Source of the DNA: Enterobacteria phage vB_EcoM_IME341
DNA: 64,000 nt
Reading direction: 5' to 3' (one strand)
Sequence record: MH051917
In this document: positions 41,243 to 54,043 of the stretch, piece by piece
How positions within the stretch are numbered: the first letter of the stretch is position 1
Layout of the letters: the number at the start of each line of letters is the position of its first letter
Notes under the pieces: generated by a model
The model's database searches: none
Seen by the model: the letters and a program-made list of their open reading frames with translations, nothing else
What the model was told of the DNA's origin: nothing
Translations under genes and position numbers: made by a program

Positions 41243-41319
41243 GGCCCTGTAGCTCAATGGTTAGCAGCAGTCCCCTCATAAGGGAAAGGTTACCAGTTCA
41301 AATCTGGTCTGGGTCACCA
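41243..41319 (+). tRNA. tRNA with CAT anticodon (Met, or Ile2 if lysidine-modified)
   Basis: cloverleaf folded by hand: T-arm ACCAG-TTCAAAT-CTGGT, anticodon loop CTCATAA, 3' CCA encoded; one acceptor mismatch. Confidence 0.65.
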
Positions 41320-41387
41320 ACTTTGATTAGGTAGAGCAGTCAACTTCTCCATGAATAAATATCTATATAAAATTCATGGAGAAAATT

Positions 41388-42047
41388 ATGCTTTGCCAAT
41401 ATTGTTCTAAAGAATGTAAAAACTTAAATTCACTAAAGCAACATGAAAAACGGTGCAAATCTAACCCAAATGGATTAGATATGAGCGGCCCTAATAACCC
41501 TCGTTTCGGTCTTAAAGGTGTCAATCAATTTACAAAAGCCAAAGAACTAGGTAAAGAAATAAAGGTTTCTGATAAAACCAGAGAAAAACTTAGAAAAGCC
41601 AATACAGGATATGTATGGTCTAATGAACGCAAAGAAGCACATTCTAAAAGAATGCGGCAAGCTGTTCTTGATAATCCTGATTCATATTCTGCTTCTAATG
41701 TTTCTGGTCGAGTAAAAACATATGAGTTTGACGGATTTAAATTTAAAGGGACTTGGGAATTAAAAGTTGCTAAGTTTTTAAAAGAACACAATATCAAATA
41801 TACTAATGAAATAAAGCCAATTCCTTACGAATGGGAAGGTTCAGAACATCTCTATTTTCCTGATTTTTATTTACCCACTTATGATTTTTATATAGAAGTC
41901 AAAGGATATAAAAGAGATAGAGACCTTTGTAAATGGAAAGCTTTAGAAAATTTGATAGTTTTAGAAAAAGATGAGATTTCCGATTTGTCTTGTCTTTTAA
42001 ATAAATTACGTCCCGCTGGTGTAATGGATAGCATACGATCCTTCTAA
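41388..42047 (+). CDS. free-standing homing-endonuclease-like protein: CxxC...HxxxxC zinc finger, NUMOD-like linker, PD-(D/E)xK domain related to gp4
   Basis: ATG 41388 after GGAGA; C-terminal YFPDFYLPTYDFYIEVKG parallels gp4 YFMDF...FEVK; lies in tRNA cluster like T4 segB. Confidence 0.55.
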   Translation: MLCQYCSKECKNLNSLKQHEKRCKSNPNGLDMSGPNNPRFGLKGVNQFTKAKELGKEIKVSDKTREKLRKANTGYVWSNERKEAHSKRMRQAVLDNPDSYSASNVSGRVKTYEFDGFKFKGTWELKVAKFLKEHNIKYTNEIKPIPYEWEGSEHLYFPDFYLPTYDFYIEVKGYKRDRDLCKWKALENLIVLEKDEISDLSCLLNKLRPAGVMDSIRSF

Positions 42048-42084
42048 GTTTGCGGTCCTGGTTCGATCCCAGGGCGGGATACCA
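42010..42084 (+). tRNA. tRNA-Arg (TCT anticodon)
   Basis: acceptor GTCCCGC/GCGGGAT, T-arm CCTGG-TTCGATC-CCAGG, anticodon loop CTTCTAA, CCA encoded; overlaps 3' end of the preceding ORF. Confidence 0.7.
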
Positions 42085-42314
42085 AATGAAGACTATTATA
42101 TAGTCAAGCCGTCGTATGAAGACTGATTGCCAGCATTCACCGGCGCAACAAACAAGAAACCGGGTCGCTACCGGTAAGTCGTCGGACTGAAGTTCTCTGG
42201 AGTATAGTTCCTCCCACAGTTGTACTGTGTTCTGGTTCTTTACTATCACAGCTGAAACGGCGCACCGAACACTTGCCTAGCAGGTGGAACCCCGACAAGG
42301 TTGCCGCAAGGCAT
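42085..42314 (+). ncRNA. GC-rich non-coding segment downstream of tRNA-Arg; candidate stable RNA (cf. T4 species 1 and 2 RNAs)
   Basis: no ORF, GC clearly above the window background, ends at an intrinsic terminator; inference only. Confidence 0.3.
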
Positions 42315-42342
42315 AGCCCCTTCCGAAAGGTTGGGGCTTTTT
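42315..42342 (+). terminator. intrinsic terminator (AGCCCCTTCC-GAAA-GGTTGGGGCT + T5)
   Basis: GNRA-loop hairpin and U-run; near-identical copy at 42963. Confidence 0.7.
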
Positions 42343-42383
42343 GGCATAATAAATAGATAAGTTAATTAACTTAGGAAATAATA

Positions 42384-42848
42384 ATGAAAACTTACAATGA
42401 ATTTTTGACTGAACAATCTAGTTCAGATGTAAAAGCCGCTGCGATTGCAGCAATTCAAGCAGGTAAATATTCTTACAAAGACGCCTCTGATGAAGAACGT
42501 TTCCGTTTTATTAAAGATTTTAAAGCCGAAGGTTTTACTAATGCTAATACTGTTAGCCGAGTTTTTAAAAGCCTAGCTGCATCAGGTGAATTGTTCCAGA
42601 AAGCTACAGGTAAAGCACCTGCGCCAAAAGCGGACCCTAAAGCCGCTCAAGAAAAAAATATCGCCAAAGGAATTATTTCTAAGTATGAAGCAATTCTTAA
42701 AGAGCTTTTAGTAATCAAAACAGAAGGCCAGAAACTGGCACGGGCACATAGCTTCAAAGATAATCCGCATGCTCACGACTTAGAGTATGTTGAAGATATT
42801 CAGAAAATCATCAAAGACCGTATCTGGTCTGCTAAACAAATCAAATAA
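42384..42848 (+). CDS. internal-protein-like protein with leader [11 protein letters not shown]
   Basis: capsid-targeting leader; 154 aa; position corresponds to ipI in T4. Confidence 0.65.
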   Translation: MKTYNEFLTEQSSSDVKAAAIAAIQAGKYSYKDASDEERFRFIKDFKAEGFTNANTVSRVFKSLAASGELFQKATGKAPAPKADPKAAQEKNIAKGIISKYEAILKELLVIKTEGQKLARAHSFKDNPHAHDLEYVEDIQKIIKDRIWSAKQIK

Positions 42849-50059: not shown

Positions 50060-50292
50060 GTATTGCAATTTATATTAAATCTGAGTCATGTGATTCTTAT
50101 CTGTATTCCTATGATACCGGAACGTCAGAAGAAAAAATCAAAGAAGATTTAGAAAGCGACTTGGATATGTTCCGACCTATTTCTGATTATATGGTCCAAA
50201 TATCTGATAGTGAAAGTCCGTCAACAGAAACGTGTGTTGAAATTATTATACGAGATATCTTTAAACAATCATGGGACCGAGACAATGAGTAA
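50056..50292 (+). CDS. small acidic protein
   Basis: 78-aa ORF, coupled. Confidence 0.4.
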   Translation: MSIAIYIKSESCDSYLYSYDTGTSEEKIKEDLESDLDMFRPISDYMVQISDSESPSTETCVEIIIRDIFKQSWDRDNE

Positions 50293-50734
50293 GAAAGCTA
50301 AGGAATTATCGGCAGGTATTTTGTTCATGACTGTTGATAAAGAACTGGTCATGGGGCGTGTAACAGGCTCTCGTAATCCAGAGAATATGCGTCATAAATG
50401 GGACATTCCTAAAGGTCATGTCGAACCAGGCGAAGAGCCTATTCAAGCGGCAATGCGTGAAACCGAAGAAGAGATTGGATTCACAGCATACGATCCTGCG
50501 TTCCTGAAAGACCTAGGTGAGTTCAAATATTCAAGCAATAAGAATCTACATCTGTTCTTATATACGGTGCCTGTGGAACACGAGCAGTTCAAGAATTGCA
50601 AATGTACGGCTTACCATACGTTCCCTGACGGTCGCACGATTCCTGAATTCGATGCGTTTGCCTTGATTAAACGTCCACAATGGGAATATGTCATGGGTAA
50701 GTCGATGTTTAAGGTTTTAGATTCGCTCTTTTGA
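50285..50734 (+). CDS. nudE: Nudix hydrolase
   Basis: Nudix box GHVEPGEEPIQAAMRETEEEIG; start at MSKKAKEL; directly upstream of e. Confidence 0.8.
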   Translation: MSKKAKELSAGILFMTVDKELVMGRVTGSRNPENMRHKWDIPKGHVEPGEEPIQAAMRETEEEIGFTAYDPAFLKDLGEFKYSSNKNLHLFLYTVPVEHEQFKNCKCTAYHTFPDGRTIPEFDAFALIKRPQWEYVMGKSMFKVLDSLF

Positions 50735-50764: not shown

Positions 50765-51259
50765 ATGGATATTTTTGATATGTTACGTCAAGACGAAGGT
50801 CTTGATTTAAATCTTTATAAAGACACCGAAGGTTATTGGACTATTGGGATTGGCCAGTTGATTACCAAAAACCCTTCAAAAGATGTTGCTCGTGCCGAAC
50901 TTGATAAGCTTATGGGCCGGGTTTGCAACGGTCGTATTACTATGGCTGAAGCTGAACAACTCTTTAACCGATCGGTTGAAAATGCTCGTAGAGCTATTCT
51001 GCGTAATCCTAAATTGAAACCTGTTTATGATGTACTGGACGAAGTTCGTCGTTGTGCTTTAATTAACATGGTCTTCCAGATGGGTGAAGCAGGTGTAGCT
51101 GGGTTCACTAACTCTTTACGTATGCTCCAACAGAAACGTTGGGACGATGCGGCAGTTAACCTGGCTCAATCCCGTTGGTATAAACAAACTCCTAATCGTG
51201 CTAAGCGCGTGATTTCAACATTTAAAACAGGTACTTGGAAAGCATATGAAAACTTATAA
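50765..51259 (+). CDS. e: endolysin (T4 lysozyme)
   Basis: 164 aa, near-collinear with recalled T4 lysozyme ([21 protein letters not shown]...[31 protein letters not shown]). Confidence 0.95.
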
Positions 51260-51548
51260 TGAATTTATCACTGAAGCCCGCGTAACCGCAGGTAAATTAG
51301 AAGCCGCTGTAAATAAAAAGGCCCATTCATTTCATGATTTGCCAGATAAAGACCGTAAGAAACTTGTAAGCCTTTATATTGACAAAGAGCGTATTCTCGC
51401 TCTCCCGGGCGCTAATGAAGGTAAACAGGCCAAGCCTTTGAATTCTGTCGAAAAGAAAATTGATAACTTTGCTTCTAAGTTTGGTATGTCTATGGATGAC
51501 CTTCAGCAAGCGGCTACCGAAGCAGCTAAAGCAATTAAAGGTAAATAA
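51246..51548 (+). CDS. internal-protein-like protein with leader [12 protein letters not shown]
   Basis: capsid-targeting leader; position matches ipIII/ipII in T4. Confidence 0.65.
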
Positions 51549-51550
51549 CA

Positions 51551-51580
51551 GTTTACTTTTACAATAGCTGTGATATAGTG
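51551..51580 (+). promoter_or_regulatory. early promoter (GTTTAC, 17 bp, TATAGT)
   Basis: upstream of denV. Confidence 0.5.
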
Positions 51581-51608
51581 TTCTCACACAAACATGGAGA
51601 ACACTAAA

Positions 51609-52025
51609 ATGACTCGTATTAACCTTACCTTAGTATCTGAATTGGCCGACCAACACTTAATGGCTGAATATCGCGAATTACCACGTGTTTTCGGTGCAGT
51701 TCGTAAGCATGTTGCTAATGGTAAACGTGTTCGTGATTTTAAAATTAGCTCTACTTTTATCCTTGGTACCGGCCATGTTACTTTCTTTTATGATAAGCTT
51801 GAATTTTTACGTAAACGTCAAATCGAGCTTATAGCCGAATGTTTAAAACGTGGTTTTAATATCAAGGACACTACGGTCCAAGACATTAGTGATATTCCTC
51901 AGGAATTCCGTGGTGACTATACTCCACACGAAGCTTCTATTGCTATATCTCAGGCCCGTTTGGACGAAAAAATTGCACAGCGTCCTACCTGGTACAAACA
52001 TTATGGCAAGGCTATTTACGCTTAA
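51609..52025 (+). CDS. denV: endonuclease V (pyrimidine-dimer DNA glycosylase)
   Basis: 138 aa, near-identical to recalled T4 DenV ([47 protein letters not shown]...). Confidence 0.95.
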
Positions 52026-52067
52026 TTAAATCCGTGATAGAATACTTCTATCAACTTAAGGAATAAT

Positions 52068-52367
52068 ATGAAAACTTATCAAGAATTTATTACAGAAGCC
52101 AAAGCTCCTAAAGCATTTCAAATTGGAGTTCAAGGCAATTTAGACCAAGAATATGTTGATGCTATTGTAGCAAGCCTCGGTAAACAGGGTGTACAAGTGG
52201 ATTTTGTTGATTTTACCAAAGGTAATACTTTTAATATTGTTACATCTAAAGGTTCTTTAGCTAAAGTTAAAAAGGCCTTTGGCGTAGCACAAGCATATGA
52301 AATCGACCACTCCGAATTGGAAAATAAAGGTCGCCAGAACACAATTAAAGGTTCTGGTTCTTTCTAA
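52068..52367 (+). CDS. internal-protein-like protein with leader MKTYQEFITEAK
   Basis: capsid-targeting leader. Confidence 0.65.
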   Translation: MKTYQEFITEAKAPKAFQIGVQGNLDQEYVDAIVASLGKQGVQVDFVDFTKGNTFNIVTSKGSLAKVKKAFGVAQAYEIDHSELENKGRQNTIKGSGSF

Positions 52368-52527
52368 TAAAGGCAAGCCGGCCCTCTCCTCATGAACGTC
52401 GCGTCCTCTGAGTGATGGACCTTTCCCTACCTGTAATAAGGTCGAGCCCAAGTGCGGTAAAGGGTTTACATACGGATACATGGACGAATTATGTGCCAAG
52501 GAACGGCCCCACCACTAAGAGACTACT

Positions 52528-53055
52528 ATGAAATTTTTAACTCCCATTTATCTAACCTTAATGCACGCCTTCGCTGAACGCGCCATTGAACGTTTAGACT
52601 CAGACCAATATACCTGGTATGAACCTGCTTCAAGAATGCAAGAGTTTGGTACTCTTCGACTTGATGGCGGACGCCAAACAGGTAAAACAAGTGCCCTTGC
52701 TCAGTTCGCAGCTGATTGGGTTTCCAAGGGTAATGATGTGATTGTTATGTCAAGTTCTTCGCATCGCTCGCGGGAAATCTGTAATATAATAAAGCGGGTT
52801 TCTAAGGCACAACCGCATCTTAATGTTGACCAACCCGGTTTTATCGTCTACGATACTGTTCGTTCATTTTTAGATGAAGATCATTTCCATAAGTACCGTG
52901 GGCTATCTGTTACCCGATTATTGATTATTATTGAAGAGCCGATGCGCCTTCCGGCAATGGATAAGTTCTATGAAGCTTATCAGGTAATGATTAATAAATT
53001 TATGTGCCAAGGCGACAAACCTTTACCTCTGTTCTTTGTGATAGGAATGCAATGA
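52528..53055 (+). CDS. small P-loop protein
   Basis: Walker A-like GGRQTGKTS; 175 aa. Confidence 0.5.
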   Translation: MKFLTPIYLTLMHAFAERAIERLDSDQYTWYEPASRMQEFGTLRLDGGRQTGKTSALAQFAADWVSKGNDVIVMSSSSHRSREICNIIKRVSKAQPHLNVDQPGFIVYDTVRSFLDEDHFHKYRGLSVTRLLIIIEEPMRLPAMDKFYEAYQVMINKFMCQGDKPLPLFFVIGMQ

Positions 53056-53348
53056 TGACTGATGAAGAACTTTTTGAGTTCTGTTATTTCTCACGTAAGG
53101 TTCGAAGAGAGGACCTTACCGCGAATTTTGAATATGCTTATTTTTACCCACTAGAATACGTGTTCATGACAGGGCCCTTTAAGGGCTCTCGTTTTAGATG
53201 TCATGCCCCAAGCATCCGATTAATGAAACAGGTTCCTTACTTTACCCTCGAGTTCATCTCAGGGCCTTGTAAGGGTATTATTACTCGCAGTCTCTTAACT
53301 TATGACCAAGAGATTCATATGATTTCTGACTGGAAGAAATATGTCTAA
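53052..53348 (+). CDS. hypothetical protein
   Basis: ATGA-coupled ORF. Confidence 0.45.
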   Translation: MMTDEELFEFCYFSRKVRREDLTANFEYAYFYPLEYVFMTGPFKGSRFRCHAPSIRLMKQVPYFTLEFISGPCKGIITRSLLTYDQEIHMISDWKKYV

Positions 53349-53559
53349 ATTGACAATTGAAGGCTCTGATGAAGCTCTGAAGATGTTTGTTGACTGGTTC
53401 CACGGACAGGGCGAACAAGGCTTTTTGGAATGTTGGGATGGCGGACGCTGGAATGGTAAAGAAACCGTTTATCCTAGCACATATATCTCTGTTCGTGGTG
53501 GATATGACGGGATTCATTTAGTTGAATACGATATTGCATCTGATGAGGAAGTGAAATGA
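53341..53559 (+). CDS. hypothetical protein
   Basis: 72-aa ORF. Confidence 0.45.
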   Translation: MSKLTIEGSDEALKMFVDWFHGQGEQGFLECWDGGRWNGKETVYPSTYISVRGGYDGIHLVEYDIASDEEVK

Positions 53560-53834
53560 TTGAAGATATTAAGGGTTACAAACCACATACCGACGACAAA
53601 ATCAGTAAAGTGAACGCGATTAAAGATGCTGAAGTTCGATTAGGGTTAATCTTTAAAGCCTTGGAAGAAGAATATGTTGAAGCCTTTACATGCTCGGGTG
53701 TTGACAAAATGAGTGATGAAGAATTCAACCTCACCCATGAACGCCTAGCCCAGATTCGTACGGCAATCGAACGCTTGAAAGAAGCAAGCATGTGGGCGTG
53801 TCGTTCCGTTTTCCAGCCCGAGGAAAAATACTGA
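53556..53834 (+). CDS. hypothetical protein
   Basis: 92-aa ORF after GAGGAAG. Confidence 0.45.
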   Translation: MIEDIKGYKPHTDDKISKVNAIKDAEVRLGLIFKALEEEYVEAFTCSGVDKMSDEEFNLTHERLAQIRTAIERLKEASMWACRSVFQPEEKY

Positions 53835-54043
53835 TGAAAATTGAAAGTTTACAAGATTTCCAGCGTATCATTGGTGAAGCCTGTACCGGCTACCACAAAT
53901 ACTTGCTTGACGACCAAATGGCTTGTCTCGAAGAAGGTGAAGTACAGTATGCAGCCCAACGCCTTGAACAAGTGAAAGAGTTTTATCCTGTATTGGTAGA
54001 AATTTGTTCAGCTGCTGGAAAACTTACCCCATTCCAAGAATAA
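53834..54043 (+). CDS. hypothetical protein
   Basis: ATG 53834 after GAGGAAAAA. Confidence 0.45.
   Translation: MKIESLQDFQRIIGEACTGYHKYLLDDQMACLEEGEVQYAAQRLEQVKEFYPVLVEICSAAGKLTPFQE

Follow-up and report, generated by a model that had tools for sequence, protein, structure and literature searches.

The GC-rich gap upstream of vs.8 in a T4-like phage: a probable structured RNA whose core recurs in unrelated phages

What accounts for a markedly GC-rich interval without an evident gene in the AT-rich genome of a T4-like phage? The interval in question spans nucleotides (nt) 52368-52527 of a 64,000-nt stretch of Enterobacteria phage vB_EcoM_IME341 (sequence record MH051917; this whole stretch is called the window) and lies between the stop codon of an internal-protein-like open reading frame (ORF) and the ATG of vs.8, where a preliminary description made from the sequence alone had placed it. 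The enrichment reported there is borne out: the GC fraction of the gap is 0.519 against a window mean of 0.397 (standard deviation of 160-nt windows, 0.044), a value that just 0.4% of the window's 160-nt windows reach. Here, comparison of the gap with its relatives in other phages revealed that this composition stems from a structured noncoding RNA of about 140 nt on the plus strand, at 52372-52510 (GC 0.547). That the island is a genuine structured RNA at all we consider very likely; what it does is less clear-cut, and the possible roles are weighed below against its distribution.

A compensated fold on the plus strand

The element is built around a 31-nt core (CCUGUAAUAAGGUCGAGCCCAAGUGCGGUAA, 52430-52460) that is predicted to form, together with the preceding A, a small three-way junction closed by helix P1 (Table 1). 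A covariance model of this core, R1, scored 69.4 bits at 52421-52469 (expectation value [E] about 2e-22), and no second copy was found in the 64-kilobase (kb) window, where the next best score was 10 bits. Among 55 distinct variants drawn from all clades, P1 pair (-2,+1) is canonical in every one (AU in 28, UA in 11, UG in 7, CG in 6, and GC in 3), as is pair (-3,+3) (CG in 37, GC in 11, UA in 5, and AU and GU in 1 each), and pair (-4,+4) is canonical in 54 (CG in 42, GC in 12), such that all four Watson-Crick types are present at both (-2,+1) and (-3,+3). Position +2 is a G in 53 of these variants, with a single C and a single A, and thus behaves as an unpaired bulge within P1. In alignment A1, the covariation score of 0.310 exceeded that of column shuffles (0.086 +/- 0.015; none of 500 reached 0.310), a comparison that, like our other shuffle tests, is inflated by kinship among the sequences. 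Sliding the registers by 1-3 columns gave a score of at most 0.08, and changes on both sides of a pair were found in 42 cells, compared with 16.4 for the shuffles.

Within the junction, P2 is formed by A-CCU and AGG-U. Its three inner pairs are invariant. The outermost one, 52429 with 52442, forms AU in 53 variants and GC in two (L130/L153 and the second copy of locus L036), a switch that occurred in two independent copies. P3 is found as GC(C)...(U)GC, GCC-UUUU-GGC, GCC-CGC-GGC, GUC-CGC-GAC, GCG-CAA-CGC, and GCG-CAA-UGC; the GCC/GGC form occurs in L042 and in the second copy of L044/L090, GUC/GAC in the second copy of L036, GCG-CAA-CGC in phage CIP9, and GCG-CAA-UGC in L105, L142, and L137. 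No covariation between the P2 and P3 loops was seen by eye among 49 variants. The G-U pairs further indicate the strand: read on the plus strand, pair (-5,+5) is GU in 15 variants and pair (-2,+1) is UG in 7, and both would become C.A mismatches if read on the opposite strand. Since the plus strand is also the strand of all flanking genes, the structure is that of the sense transcript. Some Kanagawa/Karam-like T4 relatives carry two cores in tandem, about 65 nt apart; the second copy is 2 nt shorter and scores 31-46 bits, and the differences among second copies are compensatory in P2 and P3.

In the T4-like phages, the core is embedded in a longer form of about 139 nt, which we examined in an alignment of 19 distinct sequences (A2). 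Paired states account for 87% of the cells at the proposed pairs, and the covariation score was 0.153 compared with 0.051 for shuffles (none of 500 reached it) and at most 0.034 for slid registers, with five covarying pairs distributed over four helices (P0, Pb, the inner stem of Pa, and P1). The long-range closing helix P0 is canonical throughout, its pair (10,105) being CG in 13, AU in 3, and GC in 3 sequences and its pair (11,104) GC in 13 and CG in 6; in other T4-like subgroups it reads, by eye, as CUG/CAG or CCUG/CAGG. Pair (13,49) of Pb is CG in 13 and AU in 5, with one sequence unpaired, next to an invariant CG at (14,48). The outer stem of Pa is invariant in A2, and the inner pair (29,33) alternates between GC (8), AU (4), and GU (3); in L014, L142, L146, and L151, one C and one G of the outer stem were lost together, amounting to a compensated pair loss. 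The P1 counts in A2 are UA 8, UG 5, AU 3, and CG 3. The 3' hairpin, by contrast in kind, is supported by conservation and not by covariation, with pairs (128,140), (129,139), and (130,138) canonical in 17-19 of the 19 sequences and hardly varying, and pair (131,137) being A-U in 14 of them, with A.C in the window. An independent RNAalifold run on A2 recovered P0, Pb, Pa, P2, and the 3' hairpin and lengthened Pb by 52385-52386/52414-52415. Taken together, helices whose compensatory changes exceed both shuffles and slid registers mark the element as a structured noncoding RNA.

The scaffold around the core differs among phages. T4 proper has a shorter one, GGGAA/UUCCC around CCUCAU/AUGAGG, whose variants are compensated (GGGAG/CUCCC in L020, CCUUAU/AUAAGG in L076, and U-G). 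A helix immediately 5' of P1 recurs with other sequences across clades (GGGAA/UUCCC, GGGG/CCCC, GGAAC/GUUCC, GAGUG/CACUC, and GAGGG/CCCUC), and an additional outer long-range helix is present in T4-like and Pylas-type phages; both were read by eye and not counted.

Table 1. Features of the gap and its surroundings, in window coordinates unless a locus is named
Feature	Coordinates	Strand	Remarks
Whole element, T4-like long form	52372-52510	+	About 139 nt; conserved block of alignment A2
Conserved core, small three-way junction	52429-52460	+	A + CCUGUAAUAAGGUCGAGCCCAAGUGCGGUAA; covariance model R1
P1, 5' strand (CCU)	52426-52428	+	Helix closing the core; 55 distinct variants, all clades
P1, 3' strand (A, bulged G52462, GG)	52461-52464	+	55 distinct variants
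P2	52429-52432 with 52439-52442	+	Hexaloop GUAAUA, 52433-52438; consensus GURNNA
Junction CGA, P2 to P3	52443-52445	+	Single-stranded
P3	52446-52447 with 52454-52455	+	
Junction GGUAA, P3 to P1	52456-52460	+	Single-stranded
P0, 5' strand (CCG)	52378-52380	+	Long-range closing helix; pairs with 52473-52475
P0, 3' strand (CGG)	52473-52475	+	Pairs with 52378-52380
Pb, 5' strand (CC)	52382-52383	+	Pairs with 52417-52418
Pb, 3' strand (GG)	52417-52418	+	Pairs with 52382-52383
Pa hairpin	52389-52412	+	Outer stem CUCA/UGAG, 52389-52392 with 52409-52412; inner stem 52396-52398 with 52402-52404
3' hairpin GCCA-AGGAA-CGGC	52495-52507	+	GGA in loop; T4-like phages only
GTTTAC	52464-52469	+	3' side of P1 plus linker to P0
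GTG ORF, 39 amino acids	52412-52531	+	TGA overlaps the vs.8 ATG
ORF, 80 amino acids	52257-52499	-	Mechanical
Tandem cores, L044	9020-9068 and 9134-9180		Tandem also in L090
Tandem cores, L036	5203-5251 and 5092-5138	-	
Nudix gene	50210-50734	+	Local gene order
Lysozyme gene e	50765-51259	+	Local gene order
Internal-protein-like gene, first	51246-51548	+	Local gene order
denV	51594-52025	+	Local gene order
Internal-protein-like gene, second	52068-52367	+	TAA at 52365-52367; 5' neighbor of the element in this phage; outside the element
vs.8 (P-loop ORF)	52528-53055	+	ATG at 52528; terminase-ATPase-like; usual 3' neighbor in T4-like phages

The window phage is a T4-like phage of the genus Dhakavirus, and its region 52000-53100 is 93-96% identical to phages C6, QL01, MX01, and JS10; the gap carries no annotated feature in the JS10, AnYang, and FB records. 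Downstream, the P-loop ORF is annotated as vs.8 in JS10 and is 39% identical to T4 vs.8 from T4 residue 44 onward, and it is followed by vs.7 and then on to regB. The vs.8 product has been described as a homolog of the terminase ATPase domain in a 2026 preprint (bioRxiv 10.64898/2026.04.30.721860). The ORFs at 42384-42848, 51246-51548, and 52068-52367 share the N-terminal leader MKTY(N/Q)EF(I/L)TE, presumably the capsid-targeting sequence of internal proteins, and are otherwise dissimilar, thus forming a small family of internal-protein-like genes dispersed in the early region.

Distribution across phages and the link to vs.8

Matches to the 160 nt of the gap were obtained in 1,020 phage records. 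They span the full length in Dhakavirus, gap positions 16-155 in T4-like phages of Klebsiella, Salmonella, Enterobacter, and Citrobacter, and positions 59-142 in T4, where the matching stretch falls within the annotated first 44 codons of vs.8. The core extends to other phage groups. Its 40 nt at 52426-52465 match Vequintavirus genomes at 92%, and in rV5 and isim it occupies a 290-nt unannotated gap from ORF75 to promoter P74, just upstream of a transfer RNA (tRNA) cluster. In the N4-like (Schitoviridae) phage Pylas, it lies in a 1-kb ORF-free stretch beside tRNAs, and in the 44-kb siphophages Ivi and EcoPhCCP1 it follows the endolysin gene. Pattern scans added two further contexts, L046 (before an HNH gene) and L042, together with about 30 genuine metagenome copies. 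The core is always intergenic and on the sense strand, and the neighboring genes differ among phage groups. The upstream gene is denV in T4, differs again in CIP9, WFL6982, and X20, and is unrelated in rV5, Ivi, and Pylas; the association with an internal-protein-like gene to which the preliminary description drew attention is thus incidental, and the recurrent neighbor in T4-like phages is vs.8, on the downstream side.

A blastn search found no match in 5,426 Escherichia coli genomes, and across 185,579 bacterial and archaeal species genomes, only seven pattern hits were recovered, all in GC-rich coding DNA and scoring at most 22 bits, compared with 31-71 bits for genuine copies. The lone 'plasmid' hit (PLSDB CP057073.1, 100816-100858) belongs to an rV5-sized, 137.5-kb 'non-mobilizable E. 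coli plasmid'. Several 'Campylobacter phage' records, such as A116 (GenBank MG065676, 16704-16931), also carry the rV5-type element. The element in these and in CP057073.1 is 93-97% identical to that type, and the records are probably rV5-like coliphage DNA that was mislabeled or is contaminating.

In Pylas, the ORF-free stretch (L029 1250-2300; MH899585 66747-67797) of about 1 kb is made of repeat-bounded units, which are also present in L032, L034, L037, and L038. The unit borders, GUAAGAGCAUUG ... GCAGUGCUCUU(U/A)(C/U)CGUUGUG, can pair in the manner of an acceptor stem around variable tRNA-like inserts, and a permuted-tmRNA hit at L029 1917-2004 scored 33.7 bits, below its gathering score of 47. 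In the rV5-related loci L035 (540-700), L065, and L074, an imperfect direct repeat, YAGAGGG(A)CUUGAWAGUGC, stands on both sides of the element, and in rV5 and the Ivi-type siphophages, a related UUGAUAG precedes the core by about 55 nt. Such repeats may act as processing signals or weak promoters, or they may be scars of insertion.

The preliminary description had proposed an Rfam/Infernal scan and an alignment to relatives; the former returned no family match, and the latter returned the conserved structure with compensatory changes described above. With the 4,227 covariance models of Rfam 15, the whole window yielded only two tRNAs at gathering thresholds (at 41243 and 42010), and the interval 52200-52700 yielded a single chance microRNA hit outside the island at E up to 10. 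Nothing overlapped the element in the loci of T4, rV5, Ivi, Pylas, L046, L042, and L035 at E up to 1. In the literature, we found neither an RNA described between denV and vs.8 nor the core sequence, although one catalog of 10,006 candidate viral structured RNAs (PMC10690425), which is not sequence-searchable, may already list it. The RNA family has apparently not been described so far.

The contexts beside tRNA clusters bear on a possible role in RNA processing, in which the element would be a new small self-cleaving ribozyme or an endonuclease site that cuts a polycistronic transcript or frees small RNAs. A ribozyme could well have such an architecture, in which short helices meet at a compact three-way junction of about 45 nt whose junction nucleotides scarcely vary, and intergenic or tRNA-adjacent phage DNA is the typical niche of hammerhead, twister, pistol, and hatchet ribozymes. 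In addition, the borders of the Pylas-type and rV5b-type units are repeats that also border tRNA-like units, as processing signals would. However, no Rfam 15 ribozyme model matched, including in the 501-nt search that allowed E up to 10; no likeness to the cores of hammerhead, twister, pistol, or hatchet ribozymes is known to us; and no feature identifies a cleavage site. The elaborate clade-specific scaffolds would, moreover, be superfluous for a mere cleavage site, and we regard a processing element as quite improbable.

Among T4-like phages, the element and vs.8 are closely linked. The element lies upstream on the same strand, within about 520 nt, at 37 of 39 vs.8 loci (vs.8 amino acid identity, 34-95%), and usually ends 55-120 nt before the ATG. 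Such a position would be expected of a cis-regulatory leader of vs.8, that is, a 5' untranslated region (UTR) controlling translation or mRNA stability through a protein, a ligand, or a switch between P1/P3 and a competing helix. RNAalifold indeed proposes an alternative pairing of GAGCCC (52444-52449) with GGGUUU (52462-52467) that would disrupt P1 and P3, and the tandem copies in L044 and L036 are likewise reminiscent of some riboswitches. The 3' extension of the T4-like form also contains two or three A(N)GGA motifs, one of which occupies a hairpin loop and is separated by about 18 nt from the next, immediately ahead of the ribosome-binding site, an arrangement that we take to resemble CsrA-type sites. 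Nevertheless, four other phage groups have the core ahead of unrelated genes or of tRNA-like units, and in rV5 and Ivi a strong sigma-70 promoter (11/12 and 10/12 matches, respectively) separates the element from the next gene. Salmonella phage STP4-a retains the entire T4-like element, including the 3' hairpin, with no vs.8 after it. About 450 nt separate the element from vs.8 in KPV15-type Klebsiella phages, and two loci, L148 and L150, have vs.8 without the element. Between the 3' hairpin and the ribosome-binding site, sequence conservation is absent; the alternative helix does not covary and could not form in most other clades; and no riboswitch family matches. A dedicated vs.8 leader therefore appears unlikely to us, if still worth considering.

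Several loci deserve mention in their own right. L148 and L150 are 167-kb T4-like contigs from IMG/VR whose vs.8 (34-37% identity) is preceded, at 960-1000, by only about 40 nt (…cccgaaataagcaaacccttatgaggca…), and they represent natural 'deletion' controls. The wide spacing in KPV15-type phages is seen in L125-L128 at about 540-1000. A pairing of a CCUCUCC tract with the vs.8 ribosome-binding site was also considered and was dropped because that site is not conserved.

The linkage to vs.8, the occurrence of the core before unrelated genes, the intervening promoters, the retention of the element in STP4-a, its absence from L148 and L150, and the tandem copies form a pattern that fits a module, recognized by a trans factor common to these infections, better than a leader dedicated to one gene. 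With moderate confidence, we favor a structured RNA module that acts as RNA and is largely independent of its neighbor. Such a domain would be cotranscribed on the plus strand with the flanking early/middle genes. In the predicted fold, a scaffold consisting of the long-range helix P0 and of helices Pb and Pa presents P1 with its bulged G, and P1 closes the near-invariant 31-nt three-way junction, with its P2 and P3 mini-hairpins and its CGA and GGUAA strands. The core could then serve as a self-contained recognition module that works as RNA and binds a trans-acting partner, most likely a protein or RNA, either of the Enterobacterales host or of the infection machinery. The phage families would have acquired this module horizontally, each on its own scaffold, and in the T4-like phages it would travel with vs.8; a stand-alone or processed RNA would be more likely than a dedicated leader of that gene. 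On a more specific and tentative level, the core might be a horizontally mobile RNA 'cartridge' that works in trans on a host protein, as its decoy or inhibitor; the target could be an Enterobacterales immunity or RNA-metabolism factor. We rate this idea as unlikely in itself, and a new class of self-cleaving ribozyme comes only just behind it.

Several points weigh against an independent RNA module. Single-sequence folding is no more stable than that of shuffles (z = -0.63, -0.75, and -0.03), and the minimum-free-energy fold of the window's element is a different, rod-like structure that disagrees with the covariation model. Within P2 the three inner pairs, and within P3 the two constant ones, are near-fixed, so support for them comes from a few rare variants, and most sequences were gathered with patterns in which much of the core was preset, so that the core looks more invariant than it is. 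The alternative RNAalifold helix competes with P1 and P3. Finally, the tight linkage to vs.8 would also fit a cis role or synteny, and the idea of a trans-acting partner is drawn from the distribution of the core alone.

Coding, promoter, and terminator readings

The absence of an ORF from the gap, as first described, holds in the sense that no conserved ORF is present, but mechanical ORFs of 39 and 80 amino acids do exist (Table 1). By a coding interpretation, the region would encode an N-terminal extension of vs.8 (T4 AAD42678, 219 amino acids) or a small upstream ORF coupled to vs.8. The T4 annotation spans the region, the ATGA overlap of the 39-amino-acid ORF with vs.8 in the window resembles translational coupling, and the sole frame that can be read through the core at all is uninterrupted and preceded by a start codon in 39 of 69 distinct copies. 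However, that frame is missing in the other 30 copies and ends anywhere from +14 to +608 nt past the core, depending on the phage. The fusion to vs.8 occurs only in T4; elsewhere the frame stops 14-113 nt past the core, is shifted by 1-nt indels between close relatives, meets a stop within the core in CIP9, and lacks a start in the rV5, Pylas, and Ivi copies. On the minus strand, 5 of 19 relatives have a disrupted frame. Moreover, the substitutions are compensatory across the helices and not codon-patterned. With neither frame nor length kept, we rejected the coding interpretation, which we find barely conceivable, and no conserved coding region explains the composition of the gap.

Residues 1-41 of T4 vs.8 align to nothing in the window's vs.8, with homology starting at residue 44, which indicates that the T4 vs.8 start codon is probably misassigned. 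The annotated start would lie about 120 nt too far upstream (L004 1487-1606, corresponding to AF158101 64793-64912). The 40 extra codons cover the element and have no counterpart in other vs.8 proteins, and the likely start is the ATG at L004 1607.

The remaining DNA-level interpretation is that of an early promoter for vs.8 (GTTTAC ... AATTAT) or of an intrinsic terminator of the upstream gene. The preliminary description had pointed to a GTTTAC at about 52463 as a possible promoter; the hexamer is indeed present, at 52464-52469 and not at 52463, and we take it to resemble the T4 early -35 hexamer. A consensus scan scored TTTACA-16-AATTAT at 52465-52492 as a 9/12 match. Yet such promoter-like sites are at chance level in the 3-kb region (9 compared with 6.5 +/- 2.8 in shuffles), T4 has GGGTAAATAC in place of the hexamer, and the would-be -10 varies freely among relatives (AATTAT, ACTACC, TAAACA, and CCTAAC). 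The hexamer belongs instead to the fold. No terminator-like site was found in 52368-52527, the three detected in 51000-54000 lying outside it. Neither a promoter nor a terminator accounts for 140 nt conserved with compensatory changes, or for the core in unrelated phages, and this explanation is highly improbable.

Significance and comparison with known systems

If the structured RNA proposed here is real, it would be the third conserved structured RNA in T4 beside RNA C and RNA D, masked by an overlong vs.8 annotation in one of the most thoroughly annotated genomes, and the reference annotation of T4 and hundreds of relatives would be corrected. A 31-nt junction shared across phage families, with four Watson-Crick types at two P1 positions, strongly suggests a role exerted by the RNA itself and points to the horizontal transfer of an RNA module among virulent phages that are unrelated but infect the same hosts. 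Since T4 is genetically tractable, the element is amenable to direct testing, and its constant adjacency to vs.8 in T4-like phages offers a handle on that gene, whose product was reported to be toxic with the Avs2 sensor (bioRxiv 10.64898/2026.04.30.721860). A decoy cartridge, if true, would represent a new class of RNA-based host-takeover or counter-defense element in T4 itself; a merely gene-specific leader would be of modest, local interest.

Known systems are analogous to the element in kind only, the nearest being orphan structured RNAs of phages, small ribozymes of phage intergenic regions, and decoy RNAs of counter-defense. In T4, the closest candidates for comparison are RNA C and RNA D (species 1 and 2 stable RNAs, rnaC/rnaD), besides tRNAs the sole small RNAs recognized there, which T4 transcriptome work describes as RNAs of yet unknown function (PMC9697503). 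Like the element, they are small, GC-rich, noncoding, transcribed in the sense direction, conserved among T-even relatives, and without an Rfam match here. They share no sequence similarity with it, lie at the tRNA cluster's end, and occur only in T-even relatives, whereas the element precedes vs.8 and has its core in common with rV5-like, N4-like, and siphophage genomes.

This comparison extends to a second GC-rich island in the window, at 42085-42383, for which a shared origin or function had been suggested. Local alignment of the two islands scored 16, compared with 17.7 +/- 2.1 for shuffles, and the covariance model found nothing there, and the suggestion is not upheld. The second island is noncoding, directly follows tRNA-Arg (42010-42084), ends in a terminator-like hairpin before the internal-protein-like gene at 42384, and has no Rfam match. 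A homologous stretch is annotated as rnaC plus terminator in phage Kha5h, which identifies the island as a stable RNA region of the T4 RNA C/D type. Both islands are thus GC-rich in an AT-rich genome because both are RNA genes, albeit unrelated ones, and the adjacency of each to an internal-protein-like gene is a coincidence. Next to the second island, an ORF at 41376-42047 (plus strand; 223 amino acids; Cys-rich N-terminus) lies between tRNA-Met (41243-41319) and tRNA-Arg, with a 38-nt overlap with the latter, and matches by position alone the SegB-type homing endonuclease of T-even tRNA clusters.

The small ribozymes of the hammerhead, twister, pistol, and hatchet classes resemble the element in having a core of about 45 nt, a junction of short helices, and conserved unpaired nucleotides, as well as in their location between phage genes or near tRNAs and their horizontal spread. 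They differ in that the element matches no ribozyme covariance model at any threshold tried and catalysis is for it only a candidate property; to our knowledge, its CGA and GGUAA junctions and its GURNNA hexaloop are unlike those of any ribozyme class. Riboswitches and protein-binding leaders, including CsrA-type GGA hairpins, share with the T4-like element a position directly before a gene and a conserved core resembling an aptamer; GGA motifs close to the ribosome-binding site, a second possible pairing, and tandem copies in some phages add to the likeness. In contrast to such leaders, which hold a constant 5' UTR position before functionally related genes, the element is followed by genes that vary by clade, with intervening promoters in rV5 and Ivi; no known class matches it, and its gene context suggests no ligand.

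A tRNA or tRNA remnant was considered and rejected, as ARAGORN found only tRNA-Met and tRNA-Arg in the window, the tRNA family RF00005 gave no hit on the island, and the P2 hexaloop on its 4-base-pair stem is unfit for a 7-nt anticodon loop. Mimicry of a host RNA was likewise not supported: the core aligned to the rrnH operon (16S, 23S, and 5S ribosomal RNA [rRNA] and three tRNAs) with a score of 17, compared with 19.6 +/- 2.1 for shuffles, and the search for sense or antisense words of at least 8 nt in rrnH gave a single 8-mer, the 4.5S, RNase P, tmRNA, 6S, and CsrB RNAs not being individually compared. Because of this below-shuffle alignment and lone 8-mer, we discounted as numerology the resemblances to 23S 1093-1098 (a GUAAUA hexaloop followed by GGUCGAG...GCGG; the 23S sequence itself was confirmed), to the 16S 3' end (GUAACAAGGU), and to the 530 loop (GCGGUAAU). 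CUGUAAA and CGAGC..CAAAG may likewise resemble tRNA-Tyr loops.

The packaging RNA (pRNA) of phi29 offers a further analogy, as a phage-encoded RNA of about 120-170 nt organized around a three-way junction, and the element adjoins a terminase-ATPase-like gene in T4-like phages. It remains an analogy only: there is no sequence or family match, the other clades have no terminase-like neighbor, and T4 packaging, as far as we know, needs no RNA.

A final group comprises the counter-defense and decoy RNAs of phages, namely RNA anti-CRISPRs, phage tRNAs, which offset the tRNA-cleaving Septu and retron systems (PMC13096335), and pseudo-ToxI. The known decoys mimic a CRISPR repeat, a tRNA, or an antitoxin repeat, whereas for the element no host counterpart was found in the comparisons made here. 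Like these RNAs, however, the element is restricted to phages, horizontally exchanged, small, and located among accessory early genes and tRNA clusters of virulent enterobacterial phages, and its conserved module on variable scaffolds has the look that would be expected of a decoy or binder RNA.

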